A DNA stretch of 64,000 nt, taken from an uncultured Gammaproteobacteria bacterium (GTDB lineage Bacteria > Patescibacteriota > Microgenomatia > Levybacterales > UBA12049). The stretch lies in the NCBI GenBank assembly GCA_964521295.1, contig CAZFRF010000001.1:641016-705015 (forward strand), read 5' to 3'. The notes beneath the pieces were generated by a model. It was not told the origin of the DNA and searched no databases. It saw nothing but the letters and a program-made list of their open reading frames with translations. Shown here piece after piece: positions 26,039-41,034 of the stretch (position 1 is the stretch's first letter; every line of letters begins with the position of its first letter). Made by a program: the position numbers and the translations under genes.

Positions 26039-26540
26039 TATATAACCTCAAATTATTTTCTTTATCAATCTTTGTAGGCTTTAAGTTCATATCATATCGA
26101 TAACTTACTATTCTTGTACCTTTTTTTAATTGTTTTTTAAACTTAGGCAATAATTTATTTAATGTTTTTGGAACCAAATAAACAATAACTACGGATGCTC
26201 TAGATAAATTTTCATCAAATAAATTACTTCTTTTGATAAAGATGTTTTTGTTTAATTTATTGAAGATTACTCTTAATCGTGCGATATATACCCTCGTTGG
26301 ATCAATTTCTACCCCAAGGCCATGAGCACCAACCCTGCCTGCCTCAATTAACACCTCTCCATCACCACATCCCAAGTCAATTACAAAATCTTTGTTACTA
26401 ATTTTTGCAAGCTTACATATTGCCTTTGCAGTTTTCTTATTTGTTCTCCACCAAGGAGCCCAAGGACTATCTGGTGGCCAGATCATCGACAAAAAGATTA
26501 ACAACAAAACTATTATTAATAAGATTGCGAAATTAATCAT
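26031..26540 (-). CDS. Membrane-anchored class I SAM-dependent methyltransferase
   Basis: N-terminal TM helix, then methyltransferase motif I VIDLGCGDGEVL and post-I acidic residue. Start codon overlaps the SodX-like stop. Confidence 0.55.
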   Translation of the reverse strand: MINFAILLIIVLLLIFLSMIWPPDSPWAPWWRTNKKTAKAICKLAKISNKDFVIDLGCGDGEVLIEAGRVGAHGLGVEIDPTRVYIARLRVIFNKLNKNIFIKRSNLFDENLSRASVVIVYLVPKTLNKLLPKFKKQLKKGTRIVSYRYDMNLKPTKIDKENNLRLYII

Positions 26541-26827
26541 TAATATTTATAAATTACTTTACCACAAATATCCTTAAAAGATATTTCTCCAAATTTTCTA
26601 CTATCCAAGCTGTCAGATTTATTTTCTCCTATTACAGTATATCCGCTTGTTGTTATTTTAGTAATTTTTTTAATAAAATGTTGTCCGTATTTCCTAAAAA
26701 CCACGATATCGTTATTTTTTAATCTTTTTAAAACAAAAGGAAGATTTACTGCAACAACATGATCTCCATTCTTTAATTTAGGTTCCATGCTGTGACCTAC
26801 TACTTCATATCTTGAGAGGAAAAACAT
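26540..26827 (-). CDS. S26-family (signal-peptidase-I-like) small peptidase, probable Ni-SOD maturation protease (SodX-like)
   Basis: GHSMEP (Ser nucleophile box) and NKSDSLDSRKFG (box E GDNxxxSxDSRxxG-like). Sits immediately downstream of sodN in the same orientation. Confidence 0.6.
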   Translation of the reverse strand: MFFLSRYEVVGHSMEPKLKNGDHVVAVNLPFVLKRLKNNDIVVFRKYGQHFIKKITKITTSGYTVIGENKSDSLDSRKFGEISFKDICGKVIYKY

Positions 26828-27307
26828 TTATTTGTAAGACACAATTTCCAATTCGGTTGGGAAAATTGATTTCATCCTAAATGGGGTAACATTTTTTGTC
26901 TGATAAAATATCTCTGCAATTTGCAAGACGTTTTCCAAAGCCTCCTTTGCCGATTCCATCTCTATGCCTTGTCGCGCTTTTGCAGTCGCCTTGAATGCAT
27001 TAGCAAATAATGTTTTCAAATTTGAATATTTACTAAAATGCTCTTCTTTAAAATAATCATTCATTAATGTCATCAACTCCTCTTCCAATCTATTTGCATG
27101 CTCCTCTTTAACATGCGTTACTCTTGCAATATCATGCTCTGCTTTTACTTCATTATCCCTGTTAATATCGAGCAGAAAAGATGTCATCCTAATTATGGTA
27201 TGTGCGGCTAATTGAGCTGGGTTAGGGTCATATAGGCCGCATGGAATATCGCAATGCGCAAAGGCGACTTTTTCTGGAAAAAATTTACTGAGTAAACTGT
27301 TTAACAT
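26828..27307 (-). CDS. sodN: Nickel superoxide dismutase precursor
   Basis: Short propeptide, then the Ni-hook motif HCDIPCGLYDP (HCxxPCGxY) and a four-helix-bundle-length body of 159 aa. Confidence 0.85.
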   Translation of the reverse strand: MLNSLLSKFFPEKVAFAHCDIPCGLYDPNPAQLAAHTIIRMTSFLLDINRDNEVKAEHDIARVTHVKEEHANRLEEELMTLMNDYFKEEHFSKYSNLKTLFANAFKATAKARQGIEMESAKEALENVLQIAEIFYQTKNVTPFRMKSIFPTELEIVSYK

Positions 27308-30827: not shown

Positions 30828-32363
30828 TTAAACAAATCCTGGAAAGAAATCTTTTTTAATTTTCTTCACATTCAAACTTTCTAATGTTTCTTCAAAGCCT
30901 GTAATCATCCCATGCGGACCTGAAAGATAAAAAACTCGGTCTTTATAATCTGGTATCAATTTTTTAATCATTTCTGCATTTATTCTTCCTCTTTCTCCAA
31001 TCCAATCCTCGGGAATACTTTGTAAGTCGGTAAGATTATAATAAGTTTTAATTCCAAGTTTCTCAAATGCCTTATTAAAAATATCTATATAAACTATTTC
31101 ATCTTTTTGTTTATTTGAATAAAGTAAAATAATATCTTTTTTTATATTTTTATCAATTAAATACTTCAATATGCTTCTAAAGGGAGTTATCCCGATTCCA
31201 CCTGCAATGAAAACAAATTTTTTTTCTTTAGACTTTGCAATTGTAAAATCTCCAGAAAGACTACCCGCGAGGACCTTATCTCCTGCTTTTAAGTTTAATA
31301 AAGATTTTTTAAAAGAGCTAGAATTTTCATAAAACTTAATTCCCATTCTTATTTCTGATTCTGTAGGTGACGAAGAAATTGTAAAGTATCGTCTATTACC
31401 CCTAGTATCTTGTTTTTTAACATCCAATGTCCACTCTAAATATTGACCAGGAATAAAGTTAAATTGAGAATTATTTTTAAAAACAAAATCATATATATCA
31501 TTTGCTAGTTTTTCTTTTTTTTCTAAGATCAACATCAATTTTTCCTTTGGACTCACTAAATATGAAAAAATATTACCAATTAGCAATGCTAATTCAGGTG
31601 TTGTGTAAAACATTCCTATTTTTAATTGAGGTGAAAATAAAACACCAACAAGTGCTCCATACATGATTCTTAATTGATTTGTTGGAGGAGCTGTCAATGG
31701 CTCCGTTAACATTACAATTGCAAAAAACAAAACTGGGGAGTCTAAAAGGGTCTTTTTAAGAGTGATCAAAATATCATAACCATTAATAAATGTAAAAAAC
31801 GAAATAGTCATAAGCGCTGCTGCAATAAATCCTAAAACCATTTCAAATCGCTGTAATTTTCTCACCAAAAATAATCCTCCCAACAATACCACTGGAAACA
31901 TAATTGCCGTACCCACCCACCAACTAGCTGAACCCATTGTTAACACTGAGGCAGTGTAAATAGCAATCGCTACTGGGTTAAAGATATGTTTCATTTTATA
32001 TTCAATAATAAATTTAGAAGCAACTGTAATTAGAGATACCACACTCAAATACATATATTCTTCAATTTTATTAGCTGGAGTAATTATTAATACGAGTATT
32101 AGTGCAGATATATAAATCGACTCGAGATTAGTTATAGTATTAAATATTTTTGCAAATACCCTATTGAACAACCAACAAATAGTAATAATAAAAATGGTTG
32201 AGAAAAATAATTCAATTGGGGAAAATGCTAAAAATCCTAATAGGCTTAAAAAAAGTGCGAAAAATATTAATCCAATTAGATAATATAAAACCAATCTATA
32301 CATTGTTATTAAATTTAAAACTTTATCGATCGGATTAATTATTTTTTTTAACATATTTTTCAA
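30828..32363 (-). CDS. Polytopic membrane domain fused to ferredoxin-NADP-reductase-like FAD/NAD(P)-binding domain
   Basis: About 330 aa of hydrophobic helices (one His only, so a di-haem ferric-reductase domain is unlikely; an FNPxxxA segment is present). C-terminal FNR-like motifs RRYFTISSSP (RxYS) and GGIGITPFRS. Confidence 0.6.
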   Translation of the reverse strand: MKNMLKKIINPIDKVLNLITMYRLVLYYLIGLIFFALFLSLLGFLAFSPIELFFSTIFIITICWLFNRVFAKIFNTITNLESIYISALILVLIITPANKIEEYMYLSVVSLITVASKFIIEYKMKHIFNPVAIAIYTASVLTMGSASWWVGTAIMFPVVLLGGLFLVRKLQRFEMVLGFIAAALMTISFFTFINGYDILITLKKTLLDSPVLFFAIVMLTEPLTAPPTNQLRIMYGALVGVLFSPQLKIGMFYTTPELALLIGNIFSYLVSPKEKLMLILEKKEKLANDIYDFVFKNNSQFNFIPGQYLEWTLDVKKQDTRGNRRYFTISSSPTESEIRMGIKFYENSSSFKKSLLNLKAGDKVLAGSLSGDFTIAKSKEKKFVFIAGGIGITPFRSILKYLIDKNIKKDIILLYSNKQKDEIVYIDIFNKAFEKLGIKTYYNLTDLQSIPEDWIGERGRINAEMIKKLIPDYKDRVFYLSGPHGMITGFEETLESLNVKKIKKDFFPGFV

Positions 32364-33081
32364 AACCAGATGTACTTATAGCCATCTTATCTTTTGTAAT
32401 CATGTATCCCTCACAGCTAGACAATTCTTCTATAAATTTTATCCCCTTTGTACCCATTGCAAACGCTGCTGTTGCATACCTATCAGCGTCTAATACGTTT
32501 TTTGCAATTATTGTCATACTTACAACATCATCTGATAATTCATTTTGTGTTTTTGGATTATATATGTGATTTCCCCGAATATAATTACCAGATGTTGCGA
32601 TCCCTTTATTATATACCGAAAGTATTTTTACAATTTTAGACTGGTCAAAAGGATTCTTAATTCCCACTATCCAAGCCTTACCATTCTTTGTTCCAGAAGT
32701 CTGAATATCTCCACCACAATCAATATAAAAATTTTTATAACCGGATTGTTTAATTATTTTTGCTGCATTAAATATCGCCCATCCTTTAACAATACCCGAA
32801 GGGTCACAATAATTTCTATTAAAAATATTAAAATAACCACGAGTTTCAGTTTTTGTTTTTTTAGCCAATTTAAATATACTTTTCATGTCAGTACTAAAAT
32901 CTGAATATTTAATTCTTTTTTGATTAAATAAACTAATCTCACTCGTATTTTTGTATGTACTAAATTTAGCATCTATATATTTAAAATAATTGAATACTTT
33001 AGTAAAAATTTCTTTTTTGACATCTTCATCTATAATTTCTACCAAAATTGGCATTCCCATTATTACTTCTAATTGCTTCAT
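32335..33081 (-). CDS. FAD:protein FMN transferase (ApbE family), short form
   Basis: ApbE blocks MGMPI..., FSTYKNTSEISLFN and DCGGDIQTSG. Confidence 0.65.
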   Translation of the reverse strand: MKQLEVIMGMPILVEIIDEDVKKEIFTKVFNYFKYIDAKFSTYKNTSEISLFNQKRIKYSDFSTDMKSIFKLAKKTKTETRGYFNIFNRNYCDPSGIVKGWAIFNAAKIIKQSGYKNFYIDCGGDIQTSGTKNGKAWIVGIKNPFDQSKIVKILSVYNKGIATSGNYIRGNHIYNPKTQNELSDDVVSMTIIAKNVLDADRYATAAFAMGTKGIKFIEELSSCEGYMITKDKMAISTSGFEKYVKKNN

Positions 33082-33082
33082 T

Positions 33083-33556
33083 TTATAATGCTTGATTTAA
33101 TGCGGATTGAAGAGATTCTTTAAACGCAACGCTACTCTGTGTTGCGCCGGAAACAACATCTACTTCGGCATTTTGGTTCTTAATTGCTTCTTGTCTAAAA
33201 AGCGGAATCGCCTGCTCGTTTATTTGGATCGATGTGCTCCTATCATTAGGATAAATTAAAAATTCTATATCTTTTATCCTACCGTTTTCTATAATTGCCT
33301 TTACTTGAAAATCTCCATAAAATGCATCTGCAATTTTACCTGTATAATTTCCATCTTTATATTTTAAATCAGAACTTAATGTAATTGTCGGTATTAATGT
33401 TGTTTGACTACTGCTTGAATTTTCTGATGAAAATGAATTAGTACTTGGTGCATTATTAAGTTTCTTTTCTAATAAATTCGCTAATCCCAGTTTTTGGAGC
33501 AATAAAAGTGCGCTAATAATTAAAAAAACGCCTAAGGTAACTGTAATTTTCTTCAT
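33083..33556 (-). CDS. Membrane-anchored FMN-binding domain protein (ApbE substrate-type)
   Basis: N-terminal TM/signal, and the FMN_bind flavinylation motif DVVSGATQSS (Dxx[ST]GAT). Confidence 0.65.
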   Translation of the reverse strand: MKKITVTLGVFLIISALLLLQKLGLANLLEKKLNNAPSTNSFSSENSSSSQTTLIPTITLSSDLKYKDGNYTGKIADAFYGDFQVKAIIENGRIKDIEFLIYPNDRSTSIQINEQAIPLFRQEAIKNQNAEVDVVSGATQSSVAFKESLQSALNQAL

Positions 33557-33598: not shown

Positions 33599-34597
33599 TT
33601 AGATTGAAGAGCTAATGATATTAAATATTTCCTCTGCAAACTTTTGACTATCATGACGAATTATACTTCGCTTTAACTCATCGCTATGATTTTGAGTAAT
33701 AATTACATCTTTTAATAAATCTTTTCTAAGTATGGTAAATTTAGCCTTATTGCTTAAATCATCTTTTACGGGGTACTCTTCATACTCTTCGTACCAAGAC
33801 AAAACTTTTTTAGATGGAGTCCTATCATTAACTAAAACGTAAGTAACTACATCCTTACCTAAGTATTTTTCCAAAACCTCTATGTGTTTATGAGCGGTAT
33901 AGCTAGTGGTTTGCCCATACTTTGTCATTAGGTTTAAGACGAATATCTTCTTTGCCCTAGATTCCTTTATAGCCTTTGACACACCTGTTACCAATAGATT
34001 GGGAATGATGCTGGTATATAAATCCCCAGGACCAATTACAATGAAATCTGCCTGTAAAATTGCAGCCTCTGCATCTTCGTTAATTTCCGCTTTTGGCTTA
34101 AGATATGCCTTTACTATTGGCGCTCTTTTTTCTTTATTTTCAACAACATCAATATGTGTTTCGCCAACAATAGTTTTTCCATCTTCTAAATCTACACATA
34201 AGTTTGCATTTTTAGTAAATGTAACAGGCACAACATTTCCTCTTATTCTCAAGATCTTACCAACTTCAGCAATTGCCTTTTTCATACTACCTGTTTGTTT
34301 TTCTAAGGTTGATAAAAAAATATTTCCAAAACTATGACCTTTTAAACCTCCTTCTTCAAACCTGTAATTAAACATGTTTCTTAAAAGACGTGAAGACTCG
34401 GATAAAGCAACTAAACATTGCCTAACATCACCAGGAGGCAATACGCCCAACTCATCTCGTAGCTTTCCACTTGATCCACCACTGTCTAACATGCTAACTA
34501 TAGCTGTAAGCTTTAACGGATACTTCTTGAGGCCTGTAAGAGCAACGTAACTTCCTGTTCCACCGCCAATTGTAACAACTTTAGGAATTTTGTTCAT
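33599..34597 (-). CDS. YvcK / CofD-family (UPF0052) gluconeogenesis-factor-like protein
   Basis: N-terminal IGGGTGS motif and MLDSGGSSGKLRDELGVLPPGDVRQC block typical of the YvcK/CofD family. Confidence 0.8.
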   Translation of the reverse strand: MNKIPKVVTIGGGTGSYVALTGLKKYPLKLTAIVSMLDSGGSSGKLRDELGVLPPGDVRQCLVALSESSRLLRNMFNYRFEEGGLKGHSFGNIFLSTLEKQTGSMKKAIAEVGKILRIRGNVVPVTFTKNANLCVDLEDGKTIVGETHIDVVENKEKRAPIVKAYLKPKAEINEDAEAAILQADFIVIGPGDLYTSIIPNLLVTGVSKAIKESRAKKIFVLNLMTKYGQTTSYTAHKHIEVLEKYLGKDVVTYVLVNDRTPSKKVLSWYEEYEEYPVKDDLSNKAKFTILRKDLLKDVIITQNHSDELKRSIIRHDSQKFAEEIFNIISSSI

Positions 34598-34963: not shown

Positions 34964-36004
34964 ATGGCAACCGAAGATATCTTAAAAAATGTTAGATTAA
35001 GATACAGTAATGATAAAAAGCCTGGATATACGCGAAAAATTATAAATGGTAAATTTATCTATTTTAATACTGACGGCAAAAAAATAAATGATCAATCCAC
35101 AATTGAAAGAATAAATAAATTAGTAATTCCCCCTGCTTATAAAAATGTCTGGATCGCTCCCTATGAAAATGGTCATATTCAGGCAATTGGCTATGATGCT
35201 AAAGGCAGAAAGCAATATAGATACCACCCGTTATGGATAAAGATGAGTCAAGAAGAAAAGTTCTCACACCTTATTAATTTTGGCAAAAATCTACCAAAAA
35301 TTAGAAATAAAGTAAGGATAGATATGGAAAAATCTGGCATGCCAAGAGAGAAGGTTTTAGCAACAATCGTTTGGCTTTTAGAAAAAACTTTAATCAGAAT
35401 TGGTAATGACGAATATGAAGAAGATAATAAATCTTATGGCCTAACAACTTTAAAAAATAAACATGCACAAATAAAAACAACTAATCATATTGTTTTTCAA
35501 TTTAAAGGAAAAAGTGGGGTCTATCACAACGTTAGCTTGAAAAACAAAAAAATTGCAAAGATACTTAGACGATGCAAAGAAATTCCTGGACAAGATCTTT
35601 TTCAATATCTCGATGAAAATAAACAAATTCAAACCATTGATTCATACGATGTAAATGAATACTTACGAGAAATTACCAGCGAAGATATTACAGCTAAGGA
35701 TTTTAGAACTTGGGGAGGAACAATTCTTGCTGCAAAAGCATTTTCAAAAATAGGCATACAAACAGAAGAGACTATTATTAAAGAAAACGTTTCTAGCATA
35801 ATCAAGGAGGTTGCAAGCTTCCTAAGGAATAAACCTGCAACCTGCAGGAAATATTACATTCATCCATTAATAGTAAGTGCTTATGAGAAAGGCTTTGTTC
35901 TATCAAATCTAAATTCTCTACCTAAAAAAACTCGTTATTATACAATTAATGGATTAGAACAAAAAGAAAACGAAGTGCTGGCTCTGCTTACATACATTAT
36001 GTAA
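34964..36004 (+). CDS. Type IB DNA topoisomerase (poxvirus-like bacterial TopIB)
   Basis: N-terminal DNA-binding block (PGYTRK...YFxxDGKKI) and catalytic-domain blocks. Active-site tyrosine context CRKYYIHP near the C-terminus. Confidence 0.75.
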   Translation: MATEDILKNVRLRYSNDKKPGYTRKIINGKFIYFNTDGKKINDQSTIERINKLVIPPAYKNVWIAPYENGHIQAIGYDAKGRKQYRYHPLWIKMSQEEKFSHLINFGKNLPKIRNKVRIDMEKSGMPREKVLATIVWLLEKTLIRIGNDEYEEDNKSYGLTTLKNKHAQIKTTNHIVFQFKGKSGVYHNVSLKNKKIAKILRRCKEIPGQDLFQYLDENKQIQTIDSYDVNEYLREITSEDITAKDFRTWGGTILAAKAFSKIGIQTEETIIKENVSSIIKEVASFLRNKPATCRKYYIHPLIVSAYEKGFVLSNLNSLPKKTRYYTINGLEQKENEVLALLTYIM

Positions 36005-36554: not shown

Positions 36555-37814
36555 TTACTGAGATTTTCTTAAGCTGCTAATATAATTTCTAAAAAAAATT
36601 ACACATATTAAAATAGAAAATAAAAAAACCTTCGGATTATATTGAATAAAAGAAAATACAGGAATAATGTTAACTAAAGCAATAAATGAAATTAATAAAT
36701 TTTTATTATATTTATTAAAAAACAAAAACACTTCTAACATCAGTAACACTACGGGGATGTAAATATAACGCATGTCTGAAATTATATGAAATAATTCAAT
36801 TTCATATGCAGGGGTAATCGGTAAAAATAAAGAAACCAAAAGAGTTGAGATTGTGAGGATAATTAATTTATGATCTAAAAATTTAATACTTCTTTTTTTA
36901 TGTTTAAAATAAATAATTATTCCCAAAAATAGTATAAGAGAAAAAGACCAGACCATATACTCTGAAATAAATGAATTAATCAACGGTATTATTCCTTGAG
37001 GATAATCAAATGGTATTTTCCATAACATCCAATCTTGCTGAACAAAACCATCCAACCCCTTAAACCCTAAAATTCCAGCTGGATATATTGGCGAGCCCAT
37101 TATTATTAAATTCCTAAGATACCAAAATATTCCAAACACAAAAACTAAAGCAATCGATACCAAAAATCTTATTAAATTGTAATTTTTAATAATTGACTTA
37201 AAATAAATCAATACTAAAGGGATTGCAAAAAGTGGCCCAGAATATTTTGTACCTATTAACATACCCAGGGAGAAACCGAAAATTAAACTAAAAGCCCAAC
37301 TTGTTCTTGGTTTTTGTAAAGTTAGTAAGCACAAAATAAACCACGCGCATAACCACTTATCTATACTCTGATCTGGAATTGTCCTAACAATAGATACTAC
37401 CCCAACAACACTACCAGCGAAAATTACCGAAATTAATTTATCAAATCCAAAATTTTTTGCCAAAAAATAACAAACACTCAACAAAAAAACCCAACCAAGT
37501 AAGCCAAAAAGATTTAAAGGAATTTTTAGTAAAATAAAAATTACAAGAATCAAGTTAGTTGCACCAGGTGAATAAATATACGGATCATCTAGTCTATACT
37601 TTAAAAAATCTCCCGAAATAATACTATTGGCAATTGGAATATTATAATCAGGACTTGTAGGGGTAAGATGTGTTAATCCATGATAAAAAAATATTGCAAA
37701 AATAAATACTAACATCGCAGTAATTATTTTTGAAATTAAATCAATTAATTTAGTTTCTAATAAAAGATTATTTTGATGCATTAATTTTTCTAATTTTTTT
37801 GGCGGGCACACCAA
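36555..37814 (-). CDS. Polytopic membrane protein, GT-C-like glycosyltransferase candidate
   Basis: 419 aa with about 11 TM helices. Sits at the distal end of the amino-sugar operon and overlaps the acetyltransferase gene. Confidence 0.4.
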
Positions 37815-38250
37815 TAACTATCTCATTATCTTTAACATTTTTTGTCACAACACTTCCAGCGCCAACCATTGCATTTTCTCCAATAGTTATTCCTCCTAAA
37901 ATTGTAGAATTTGAACCAATAGACGCGCCTTTTTTAATTAAAATTGGTAATAAATCCCAATCTTTATCATTTTGTTGTTTTCCTTTCGAATTTAAAACTC
38001 GTGGATACTTATCGTTCACAAAAACAACATGATGACCAATAAACACATTCTCTTCAATAATTACACCACTACAGATAAATGAATGTGATTGAATTTTTAC
38101 ATTATTACCAATTACCACATCTTTTTGAATTTCTACAAAAGTTCCAACCTGAGAATCTCTACCAATACTACAACCATATAAATTTACGAAATCGTAAATT
38201 TTTACTCCCTTTCCAATTTTGCAGTTTTTAATTATTTGATTTTTTTTCAT
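37768..38250 (-). CDS. Left-handed beta-helix (hexapeptide-repeat) sugar N-acetyltransferase, WbpD/PglD-like
   Basis: Tandem hexapeptide repeats ([31 protein letters not shown]...[25 protein letters not shown]). Confidence 0.75.
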
Positions 38251-38251
38251 G

Positions 38252-38938
38252 CTACAGACTGAAACGAAACTTTAATGCATCTAAAAATGACTCTATAACT
38301 ATTTTATTATTTACTCCACTTTTATTTTTCTTATTTCTTCCATGATAAACCGGTATTGCCTTAATATTATACCCCAAATTTGCTGCTTTTATTAAAAATT
38401 CAGCCTCAAAAAATACGCTTTTAGAGTTAGTTTTTATTTTTTTAAATATCTTTGTTTTAAATATTTTAATACTACCAACATCAAAAAGATTTTTACCAAA
38501 CATTAATAATGGTATTATATTGTAAACAAACGAGATGGTTCTTCTTAAGAATGTATATTTTTTATTTGTTCTTTTCCCTATTACTATGTCTCCATTTGTC
38601 TTTAAAATAAATCTTATTAAACGCAAAACGTCTATAGATTTCCAACCGCCATCAGCGCTAAATAAAACTGTGTATTCATTAATTGCTTGTGAATACAAAT
38701 CTTTTAAAGTTTCGGCGATACCTTTATTTTTCTTATGAATGATAATTGATACATTTTTATGATTTTTTTTAAATTTTTGCATAATTATTAAAGAATTATC
38801 TATGCTTCCATCATCACACAATAATATTTCAAATTTAATTTTCTCCTTATTCAACAACTCATAACATTCCGCCAAATATTTATTAAGTGTTGAAGCATTA
38901 TTGAAAACAGGGATTACAAGGCTTACAGAATTATTCAT
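38252..38938 (-). CDS. Family-2 glycosyltransferase
   Basis: GT-A N-terminal motifs [14 protein letters not shown] and [11 protein letters not shown]. Confidence 0.75.
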
Positions 38939-39938
38939 ACAAATTAATTTCTTTTTTTAATTTTAAACTCTTTTCCGCAGCGGCTAATAACTTAACCACA
39001 TTTAACCCGGATTTTCCGTCAGTCATAGGTGTTATGTTTTTTTTAACACAATCAACAAGATGTCTCAATTGAACCAAAAGAGTTTCTTCTTGAGACAATT
39101 TAGGAATTAGAATATCTCCACTTCTATATGCAGGGGTAAAAGGAGTAATTGAAGCCTCTGAATAATTATCTCTATTATAAATCTTAATTTTTTCAGTTGG
39201 CTCAATATCGTTAAATTGAATCATTTGCCTACTTCCACCGAGCAAAATTGTTCTTATTTTTACAGGAGATAACCAACTAACATGAATGTGTGCTGAAATA
39301 TTATTTTTATATCTTAGAAAAACATGAGCAAACTCAACATTCGACTTCCCCAAATGTCTTGAAGCTGCAACATAAATAGAAATAGGAAGAGATTCAAATA
39401 GAAAATTTAATATTGCAAAATCATGAGTTGCTAAATCCCAAAGCACATTAGTATCGGAATAAAACCTCCCTAAATTAGTACGCGTACTATCATAATAATA
39501 AATTTGTCCCATTTTTTTCTTAGAAATTTGTTCCTTAATTTTTCTAATCGCAGAGCTATAAATAAAAGTGTGTCCCACCATTAATATTTTTTTATTTTTC
39601 TTAGCCATATCCACAAGCTCTTTAGCCTCTTTAATGCTTTGGGTAACTGGTTTTTCAATAAAAACATGTTTATTCATTAATAAAGCTTTTTTTGCTAATA
39701 AGTAATGGGTGGATAATGGAGTTGCGATAGCAATTATATCTACATTATTATCATTTAATACTTCTTCGTATTTTTTTGTTGTTCGTAGAAATGGATAATC
39801 TATTGTTATTTTTCGGAGATTTTTTTCACTAACATCACAAAGGTAAGCTATGTTTACTCCGGGAATTTTTAAAAAATTTCTAACTAAATTTGGCCCCCAG
39901 TAGCCTAAACCAACTACTGCAATATTAATTTTTTTCAT
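38931..39938 (-). CDS. Gfo/Idh/MocA-family NAD-dependent sugar oxidoreductase (WbpB-like)
   Basis: N-terminal Rossmann motif [19 protein letters not shown] and family-typical EKP motif (FIEKPV). Confidence 0.8.
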
Positions 39939-41034
39939 TTTTAAAATAGCTACTTAAAACTTTGGCAACTTGTAATATTTCTGTCCTTTTAATCTCTGGA
40001 TACATTGGTAATGCTATTGATTGAGACATTAATCTTTCTGCATTCGCTAGCTTTTTTTTACCAAATCTTGAATAATAAAATTTTTGCAAATTTAGCGGTT
40101 TATCATAATAAAAACTAGTGCCTATATTATTTTTTTTCAAAAACTTATTTATTTTATCTCTATTTTTAATAAAAATAGGCAAAACATAATAAACTGGATT
40201 AGTATTTACATCGTTTTGAATAAATCTTATTGGCAAAGATTTCAATAAACTCTCGTATAACCTGACTGCTTTTAGTCTTTTTTTATTTTGAATATCCAAG
40301 TATTTTAATTTATTTAACAATACAGCTGCCTGAAAACTATCAAGCCTACTATTTGTTCCCAATATTTCATGTACATTTCTATTTTTTTGTCCATGATTTC
40401 TAAGCATTAATATTTTTTTGTAAATTTGGAAGTTATTTGTAGTTATGGCACCTGCGTCACCAAATGCCCCTAAGTTTTTGGTTGGATAAAAAGAAAAAGT
40501 TCCAATATCACCTAAAGAGCCGACCTTTTTTGAATTAAGCAGGCTTCCTTGAGCCTGAGAACAATCTTCAATTACTATTAATTTATGTTTCCTAGCAATC
40601 TTATTTATTCTTGCCATATCACAAACAAAACCATACATATGAACGACTATTATTGCTTTTGTTTTTTTTGTAATTGCTTTTTCAATCGCATCTGGATCTA
40701 TTAATGGACTATTTAAATGTGAATCTACCAACATTGGTTTTGCATTTAACATAATAATTGGAGAAATGGATGCGGAAAATGTATATGCTGGAGCAATAAC
40801 TTCATCTTCGGGCTTTATATCAATTGCCATTAAGGCAAGGAGTATTGCATCAGTACCCGAAGCAACTCCTACGCAATATTTAACCCCAATATACTCAGCA
40901 AATTTTTCCTCAAATTTTACTACCTCTTTACCTAATATAAAATCAGAAGAATTAATAATTCTTTTAAAACTTTTTAAAATATCTCCAGAGTATTTTCTAC
41001 TTTCTCTTGATAAATCAATAAAATCAACTTTCAT
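39925..41034 (-). CDS. DegT/DnrJ/EryC1/StrS-family PLP-dependent sugar aminotransferase (WbpE-like)
   Basis: Family blocks [28 protein letters not shown] and the [16 protein letters not shown] lysine region. Confidence 0.85.

Follow-up and report, generated by a model that had tools for sequence, protein, structure and literature searches.

The closest described relatives of the locus treated here are the 'NQR/RNF-like systems', a class defined by Méheust et al. 2021 (eLife, PMC8238504) and encountered mainly in Actinobacteria and in the candidate phyla radiation (CPR). In the passages of that paper and of Huang et al. 2024 (PMC10979944) on which we draw, a conduit leading from NAD(P)H to an external flavoprotein is already advanced as a hypothesis for this type of gene cluster. 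Huang et al. modelled the complex of Ktedonobacter racemifer, in which the flavinylation site of NqrB/RnfD is not conserved, and proposed that the flavin of the NqrC/RnfG-like partner, which their multimer model puts on the outside, samples the flavin site of the NqrB/RnfD-like subunit. RnfD and NqrB themselves hold two flavins some 8 Å from each other, a riboflavin towards the cytoplasmic and a covalent FMN towards the outer side; in RNF, electrons are exchanged between the riboflavin of RnfD and the NAD-binding subunit RnfC (corresponding passages of PMC12174285). Here we describe a trio of genes encoding an FMN_bind protein, an ApbE-family FAD:protein FMN transferase and a fusion of a membrane domain to an FNR-like module. 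They are located in a 64-kb stretch of contig CAZFRF010000001.1 (positions 641,016 to 705,015, hereafter the window, meaning the whole stretch analysed) with a GC content of about 31 %, the nearest named relatives of which are Candidatus Levybacteria / Patescibacteria.

The three open reading frames (ORFs) occupy the minus strand from 30828 to 33556, exactly where the preliminary description of this DNA had placed them. ORF and Pfam analyses agree with it that they are co-oriented and nearly overlapping: a single nucleotide separates the FMN_bind stop codon from the ApbE ATG, and the ApbE and fusion genes overlap by 20-29 nt, depending on whether the latter starts at ATG 32354 or at TTG 32363. 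The ATG is favoured because an identical database protein (P0001) is 508 amino acids (aa) long. By its sequence the locus is a member of the NQR/RNF-like class, the concept, architecture and taxonomic range of which have already been published. PF03116 at the N-terminal and PF00175 at the C-terminal side are joined in one protein, FMN_bind and ApbE genes lie directly upstream on the same strand, the loop bearing the flavinylated threonine has been lost, and the partner, an FMN_bind protein with an SGAT motif, is anchored in the membrane and predicted to lie outside. The subunits, ApbE, the gene order and the taxa (CPR; Ktedonobacter) are all shared, and we see no essential difference. With a probability of roughly 70 %, we consider the locus to be a complete NQR/RNF-like, flavin-only transmembrane electron-transfer system of a CPR bacterium.

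In the path that we propose, cytoplasmic NADH or NADPH would reduce the FAD held in the C-terminal FNR module of the fusion. The electrons would then cross the membrane via the RnfD/NqrB-fold domain, probably by means of a non-covalent flavin at the position of the riboflavin or FMN site of RnfD/NqrB, and reach the covalent FMN attached by ApbE to Thr139 of the FMN_bind protein on the outer face. From there they would pass to an acceptor, perhaps a small molecule, for which the cluster has no gene. Seen in this way, the system would correspond to the RnfC-RnfD-RnfG branch run outward from NADH, with the FNR module in the role of RnfC and with the FMN_bind partner contributing, in trans, the covalent FMN that the RnfD loop, lost here, would carry.

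Domains of the fusion protein and of its flavoprotein partner

The preliminary description recognised in the third gene product a polytopic membrane domain fused to an FNR-like domain. The architecture stands, while the size of the membrane part has to be corrected from about 330 to about 275 aa. Pfam finds PF03116 (NQR2_RnfD_RnfE) at residues 156-270, followed by PF00970 and PF00175 (Table 1). An AlphaFold2 (AF2) model of the full-length fusion is confident (mean predicted local distance difference test, pLDDT, of 89.9; predicted template-modelling score, pTM, of 0.84), which suggests that the FNR module and the membrane domain are held in a fixed arrangement; the membrane domain modelled alone reaches a pLDDT of 83. 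When the latter model was compared with the PDB by Foldseek, the top 15 matches were all RnfD or NqrB, with query-normalised TM-scores of 0.58-0.71, after which the matches jump to Amt and urea transporters at an E-value of about 1.

Sequence comparisons point the same way. The membrane-domain profile matches E. coli RsxD with an hhalign probability of 89 % (E=2e-6), and tblastn with RsxD hits positions 31569-31937, inside the fusion gene (E=1.4e-5). In a global MAFFT alignment the domain is colinear with RsxD from end to end, bar one gap, with paired stretches (window/RsxD) such as LILVLIITP/LLLAVSIPP, HIFNPVA/NPFNPAM, WWVG/WQWVN and MLTEPLTAPPT/ILTDPVTASTT. The gap, of about 79 aa (roughly residues 149-227 of RsxD), removes the external loop with DGISQAT187PL, the site of covalent FMN attachment. 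The likeness to NQR/RNF subunit fusions that had been suggested from the sequence alone is upheld by every homology test run.

The residues left at the junction are SAS in the window and S, T or N at the corresponding position in relatives. A cryptic flavinylation site within the fusion itself (SAS/SAT at the loop junction) was considered and rejected, since relatives have an Asn there. Two tryptophans, W148 and W149, both invariant, lie exactly at the junction and align with GWQW of RsxD; judging from this position, they could stack against the flavin of the partner.

The membrane domain contains one histidine (H126, invariant in the family) and one cysteine, and therefore neither a bis-His haem nor an Fe-S cluster. 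The single histidine had been noticed before and taken as a sign that the protein is unlike a di-haem ferric reductase; this is correct, and together with the RnfD/NqrB fold it leads us to reject such an enzyme. PF08030 scores only 18.4 bits in the fusion, below its cutoff of 22.2, and this match is located in the NAD subdomain. We also reject an unrelated transporter accidentally fused to a reductase: the only significant fold match is to RnfD/NqrB, and length and architecture are kept in thousands of proteins. At least 7993 database homologues of the fusion are found at E<=1e-5, mostly of about 505 aa; the membrane-domain profile matches 585 representatives of 50 %-identity clusters at E<=1e-30, mostly of 480-515 aa, and the fusion recurs in at least 595 genome stretches.

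The FNR module resembles b5 reductase (2eix, 1e-11) and NqrF (2r6h, 9e-10) in phmmer searches. Its FAD domain is matched by Foldseek to those of flavohaemoglobin, b5 reductase and NqrF with E-values of 1e-16 to 1e-13, and the dehydrogenase domain of SpNOX was matched as well. Of the two motifs quoted in the preliminary description, GGxGxTPF is present as AGGIGITPF, while 'RxYS' does not occur as written: the window has RRYFT (R-Y-F-T), a version of this FNR motif in which Phe replaces Tyr. A conserved C-terminal tail, DFFPGF, follows the Rossmann subdomain.

The partner protein consists of an N-terminal anchor, a linker rich in serine and threonine and a C-terminal FMN-binding domain, and corresponds to the flavinylation substrate of the NqrC/RnfG type. 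It had been described as membrane-anchored and as carrying DVVSGATQSS, and both features are found. A scan of all 74 window ORFs for [DN]xx[ST]G[AS][TS] yields a single match, its DVVSGAT. The domain aligns with the solved FMN-binding domain 8p2a (E=5e-12) in such a way that DVVSGAT falls over DAVSGAT, so that the threonine, whose absence from an alignment would have spoken against the assignment, is in register. G137, A138 and T139 are invariant in 16 aligned homologues and the motif is kept in 70 of 72 family members, among which no twin-arginine (Tat) motif was found. Thr139 is the predicted site of the FMN phosphoester. Over the 72 members the mean charge flanking the anchor is +2.0 on the N-terminal and +0.2 on the C-terminal side, a bias from which the N-terminus is predicted to be inside and the domain outside; the linkers are long and rich in S, T, P, G, A, N and Q.

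Conservation of the trio and comparison with known systems

For a comparison of loci we took the best 80 of at least 595 confirmed loci in species-representative genomes, which cover many CPR lineages and Chloroflexota, and clustered all ORFs within ±8 kb of the fusion gene all against all. FMN_bind adjoins the fusion in 71 and ApbE in 68 of the 80 loci, and the order FMN_bind-ApbE-fusion is kept nearly always, across CPR and Chloroflexota; beyond these two genes the fusion has no conserved neighbour. The fusion is 49 % identical, over residues 8-511, to that of Ktedonobacter racemifer DSM 44963, where the gene order is identical (locus L065).

Compared with the window protein, the fusions of CPR bacteria and of Chloroflexota (Ktedonobacter, Dictyobacter, Anaerolineales) all show about 48-60 % identity, even though the GC content of their loci varies from 30 to 64 %. 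Such uniform identity across phyla suggests either lateral transfer between them or a very strong constraint. Variant layouts also exist (L003, L031, L043, L036 and L040): FMN_bind-ApbE-FMN_bind-fusion, ApbE-FMN_bind-fusion, FMN_bind-FMN_bind-fusion without ApbE, and FMN_bind-fusion only. One metagenome-assembled genome (MAG) of Levyibacteriota (L003 and L069) has two paralogous fusions, only one of which is adjacent to ApbE.

Two Levybacteria loci syntenic with the window, L002 and L023, have the order CofD-fusion-MsrA-DUF360-...-NiSOD-SodX-MTase-FemAB and no FMN_bind or ApbE gene; the CofD match and the fusion match that follows it are 27-89 nt apart (L002:1-3600 and L023:6900-9600). Closer relatives of the window (the contigs of P0002/P0122 and P0003/P0123) keep the trio. 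Since the pair is missing from the former and present in the latter, FMN_bind-ApbE is a presence/absence polymorphism at one syntenic site. Several MAGs deposited as third-party annotations and titled 'uncultured Gammaproteobacteria' show Levybacteria-like synteny and may be mislabelled.

With the RnfC-RnfD-RnfG branch of RNF the window system shares the RnfD fold, a single-pass FMN_bind partner, ApbE-dependent covalent FMN and NAD(H) as the likely cytoplasmic substrate. It differs in having an FNR domain instead of RnfC and in lacking both Fe-S centres and a covalent FMN site on the RnfD-like domain, and tblastn with E. coli RsxA, B, C, E and G as queries found no homologue in the 64-kb window below E=2.6. 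In addition, electron flow would presumably be one-way here, whereas the path of RNF is semicircular and coupled to ion pumping. Na+-NQR is comparable in its NqrB-fold domain, in the FAD/NADH domain of NqrF, which the FNR module resembles, in its NqrC-type partner and in an ApbE encoded in the operon. However, the window system has no NqrF ferredoxin domain, no NqrD/E, no NqrA and no site of the NqrB Thr236 type, and quinone is an unlikely end-point in a CPR organism.

Fusions of the MsrQ-like, PepSY-like, NOX and ferric-reductase types also combine a membrane electron-transfer domain with an FNR module and are accompanied by apbE and a flavinylated external protein (passages of PMC8238504). 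Those fusions hold bis-His haems, for which two pairs of ligating histidines are needed, in a fold of six or three transmembrane helices, whereas the window protein has one histidine and the RnfD fold. The Listeria extracellular electron transfer (EET) system (Ndh2/EetAB/PplA/FmnB) is alike in the ApbE-type flavinylation of a tethered external FMN_bind protein, in its monoderm setting and in NADH as ultimate donor; it differs in that the window has no Ndh2, no quinone step and no EetA/B, and in that its ApbE is leaderless. Listeria FmnB is an exported lipoprotein and is fed by a FAD exporter of the ECF type (PMC9973259). The PplA model NF041941 is matched only in part, with 24.6 bits against a cutoff of 325.

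A leaderless ApbE and other explanations

A number of results weigh against the electron path proposed above. The PF03116 match is marginal (28.5 bits with a cutoff of 27.7), the sequence similarity of the membrane domain to RnfD lies mostly in its C-terminal half, and a specific kinship of the FMN_bind protein to RnfG, over other FMN_bind domains, is not demonstrable (hhalign probability 0.2 %). Our literature searches found no experimental study of any NQR/RNF-like member. No conserved acceptor gene is seen near the trio: the gene for a reductase substrate, which the preliminary description had proposed to look for in relatives, was not found, and neither a terminal reductase (urocanate- or fumarate-reductase-like, or MsrP-like) nor VIT1 recurs within ±8 kb in the 80 loci. 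Finally, no signal peptide, transmembrane segment or lipobox was found in the window ApbE or across its family. A leaderless enzyme is mismatched with a substrate predicted to face outward. Homology supports the minimal system first proposed for this DNA, which would conduct electrons from NAD(P)H to a flavoprotein beyond the cytoplasm, but the leaderless ApbE, which had been overlooked, complicates so simple a picture.

That the second gene encodes an ApbE-family transferase is confirmed by Pfam and by the retention of conserved residues. The protein aligns with Listeria FmnB (7esa) and V. cholerae ApbE (6nxi) from the first strand of the mature enzyme onwards, and its start lies only 7 residues before that strand. 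The H of nHIYNP pairs with a residue by which chains 6nxi and 6nxj differ (H to G), while ATSGNY and DADRYAT pair with conserved stretches of 7esa/6nxi; we take the residues of nHIYNP (H), ATSGxY and DxxxAT to have catalytic, FAD-binding and metal-binding roles. The enzyme is short, as it is across the family (about 247 aa), without some 60 internal residues that correspond to chain positions of about 102-164 of 7esa, and the best 120 database homologues are all of 236-261 aa.

The ApbE frame is open for only 5 codons upstream of the ATG, so that no signal peptide is possible. The same leaderless start (MKxTRxxMGMP...) is common to all 62 cluster-linked ApbEs from CPR and Chloroflexota, and no hydrophobic segment was found in the longer in-frame N-terminal extensions of these 62 proteins. 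A programmed frameshift joining FMN_bind to ApbE, by which the latter would be tethered outside, is unlikely, as the distance between the two genes and their relative frame differ from locus to locus.

According to passages of PMC12052999, exported substrates that have been characterised receive their flavin from lipoprotein ApbEs, and for cytoplasmic ApbEs no substrates but cytoplasmic ones are known. We found no mention of the mismatch in the passages of PMC8238504, PMC10979944 and PMC12052999 consulted. Possible explanations are flavinylation before export, an FMN_bind domain that is not outside, or a second, exported ApbE encoded elsewhere in the genomes. The first of these can be made more specific, as a tentative proposal for the whole class that we hold to be rather less than an even bet. 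The leaderless ApbE might flavinylate the near-C-terminal SGAT in the cytoplasm, after which the pre-flavinylated C-terminal part, of about 100-130 residues, would be exported without a Tat signal.

Among the alternatives to the proposed path as a whole, the one that fares best is in fact a narrower version of it, an assimilatory reductase of ferric iron or another metal, in which the external flavin would reduce Fe(III) or its chelates for uptake. Of the 127 NQR/RNF-like clusters of Méheust et al., 6 contain VIT1 iron transporters, and these authors made a like proposal for the analogous MsrQ-like and PepSY-like systems (passages of PMC8238504), and P-type ATPase genes occur within 8 kb in 9 of our 80 loci. 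However, no VIT1-like or iron-uptake gene is among the recurrent neighbours or around the trio in the window. The commonest neighbours are instead MacB-type ABC exporters (ATPase in 20 loci, permease in 10, HlyD in 12) and two-component regulators (OmpR-type, 16 loci), and DUF5666 (8), ECF sigma (7) and FMN_red (5) recur less often. We regard this restriction to metal reduction as rather unlikely.

An arrangement in which everything takes place in the cytoplasm would dispose of the ApbE mismatch. The FMN_bind domain would then lie inside, flavinylated by the leaderless ApbE found in every cluster examined, and the RnfD-like domain, instead of conducting electrons outward, would act as an ion channel, serve in energy coupling or lead to an acceptor in the membrane. 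Cytoplasmic ApbEs that modify cytoplasmic FMN_bind domains are indeed known (passages of PMC12052999), the window FMN_bind protein taken alone is ambiguous, with a charge of +2 on both flanks of its anchor, and the RnfD/NqrB fold has Amt and urea channels among its relatives, as seen with Foldseek and in passages of PMC12174285. Against this stand the positive-inside bias of the family and its long linkers, whose composition is typical of external tethers. Moreover, what the RnfD-like domain has lost is the external loop that normally carries FMN, which fits an external partner that supplies FMN, and the published multimer model likewise has the partner outside (passages of PMC10979944). On balance an all-cytoplasmic system is unlikely.

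A third possibility, a miniature NAD(P)H:quinone oxidoreductase, would let the electrons end on a quinone at the NqrB-like domain, with the FMN_bind protein as an intermediate or accessory. In Na+-NQR, quinone is reduced by NqrB, at a site that N-terminal amphipathic helices form (passages of PMC12174285); the window fusion also has a conserved N-terminal amphipathic helix (residues 2-16), followed by an invariant TMYR. RnfD, however, is among the best structural matches at least as strongly as NqrB, and a tethered external flavoprotein, kept in 71 of the 80 loci, would be needless for a quinone reductase. Chloroflexota members could use menaquinone, but CPR bacteria, to our knowledge, generally possess neither quinone biosynthesis nor respiratory chains. 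We consider a quinone end-point improbable.

The setting of the trio had also been interpreted as an envelope oxidative-repair neighbourhood. The identities of the neighbours on which this idea was based are correct according to Pfam: MsrA, an FKBP with an N-terminal hydrophobic anchor, Ni-containing superoxide dismutase (Ni-SOD) and DUF360 (Phage_holin_4_2). That the conduit feeds an envelope repair (e.g., of the Msr type) encoded by these genes is nevertheless very improbable: they do flank the trio in the window, and MsrA adjoins the fusion in the two non-syntenic loci L047 and L068, but within 8 kb of the fusion MsrA occurs in only 4 of the 80 loci and FKBP, Ni-SOD and DUF360 in 2 each, the four are retained together only in the syntenic loci L002 and L023, which lack FMN_bind and ApbE, and the window MsrA, on the strand opposite to the trio, starts directly at its catalytic GCFWC motif and hence has no export signal.

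Further features of the window and biological meaning

The positions of the trio, of its domains and motifs and of other features of the window are collected in Table 1. No FMN riboswitch or other riboswitch was found upstream of or near the operon. The CofD/YvcK-family gene next to FMN_bind is probably unrelated to the flavin system, as it adjoins the fusion only in Levybacteria synteny, in 3 of the 80 loci.

Table 1. Features of the flavin locus and of its surroundings, in window positions
Feature	Position	Strand	Extent	Basis or remark
FMN_bind gene	33083-33556	minus	157 aa	PF04205, E=4e-8
ApbE gene	32335-33081	minus	248 aa	PF02424, E=2e-40
Fusion gene	30828-32363	minus	511 aa from TTG 32363; 508 aa from ATG 32354	PF03116, PF00970 and PF00175
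Transmembrane anchor or signal-anchor of FMN_bind protein	33497..33547	minus	residues 4-20	ITVTLGVFLIISALLLL, preceded by MKK; mean Kyte-Doolittle 2.75 over 17 residues
Flavinylation motif D133-V-V-S-G-A-T139	33140..33160	minus		read from sequence (DVVSGATQSS)
RnfD/NqrB-fold membrane domain	31539..32363	minus	residues 1-275	about 10 helices
Loop-loss junction G144-SASWW149	31917..31934	minus		MAFFT alignment with RsxD; consistent with PMC10979944
FAD-binding beta-barrel	31272..31529	minus	residues 279-364	motif RRYFTISSSP; PF00970, E=1e-4
NAD(P)H-binding Rossmann subdomain	30897..31211	minus	residues 385-489	motif AGGIGITPF; PF00175, E=4e-16
CofD/YvcK-family protein	33599-34597	minus (same strand as FMN_bind)		PF01933, E=3e-88; end 42 nt upstream of FMN_bind
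Ni-SOD and S26/S24-type peptidase	26540-27307		159 aa and 95 aa	PF09055 (Ni-SOD)
Bacterial type IB DNA topoisomerase	34964-36004			PF01028, E=2e-40, and PF21338
Polytopic membrane protein	36555-37814		419 aa	no Pfam match at E<=1e-3
Sugar-modifying ORFs	37768-41034			hexapeptide transferase-like, glycosyltransferase-like, oxidoreductase-like

Some of these features deserve a comment of their own. Ni-SOD is directly followed by a small peptidase, which is probably the SodX maturation protease, a pair worth noting in a CPR genome. The topoisomerase gene is divergent from that of a DUF202 membrane protein. The polytopic membrane protein of 419 aa adjoins the sugar-modifying ORFs and may be an uncharacterised glycosyltransferase or flippase.

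Since the concept, the architecture and the taxonomic range of the NQR/RNF-like class have all been published, the locus adds only another example to it, and the leaderless ApbE is the one element that might lead somewhere new. If the tentative pre-export route were true, flavinylation in the cytoplasm would spare monoderm CPR bacteria and Chloroflexota the export of FAD, and extracytoplasmic flavoproteins would be made in a way unlike the paradigm of a periplasmic or lipoprotein ApbE. Culturable Ktedonobacteria with the same trio would permit the acceptor, the cofactors of the membrane domain and the relation between ApbE and its substrate to be tested. For CPR bacteria, in which very little redox metabolism can be recognised, so compact a way for electrons from NAD(P)H to leave the cell, relying on flavins only, could be one of few means of shedding reducing equivalents, of reducing iron or of interacting with hosts through redox reactions.

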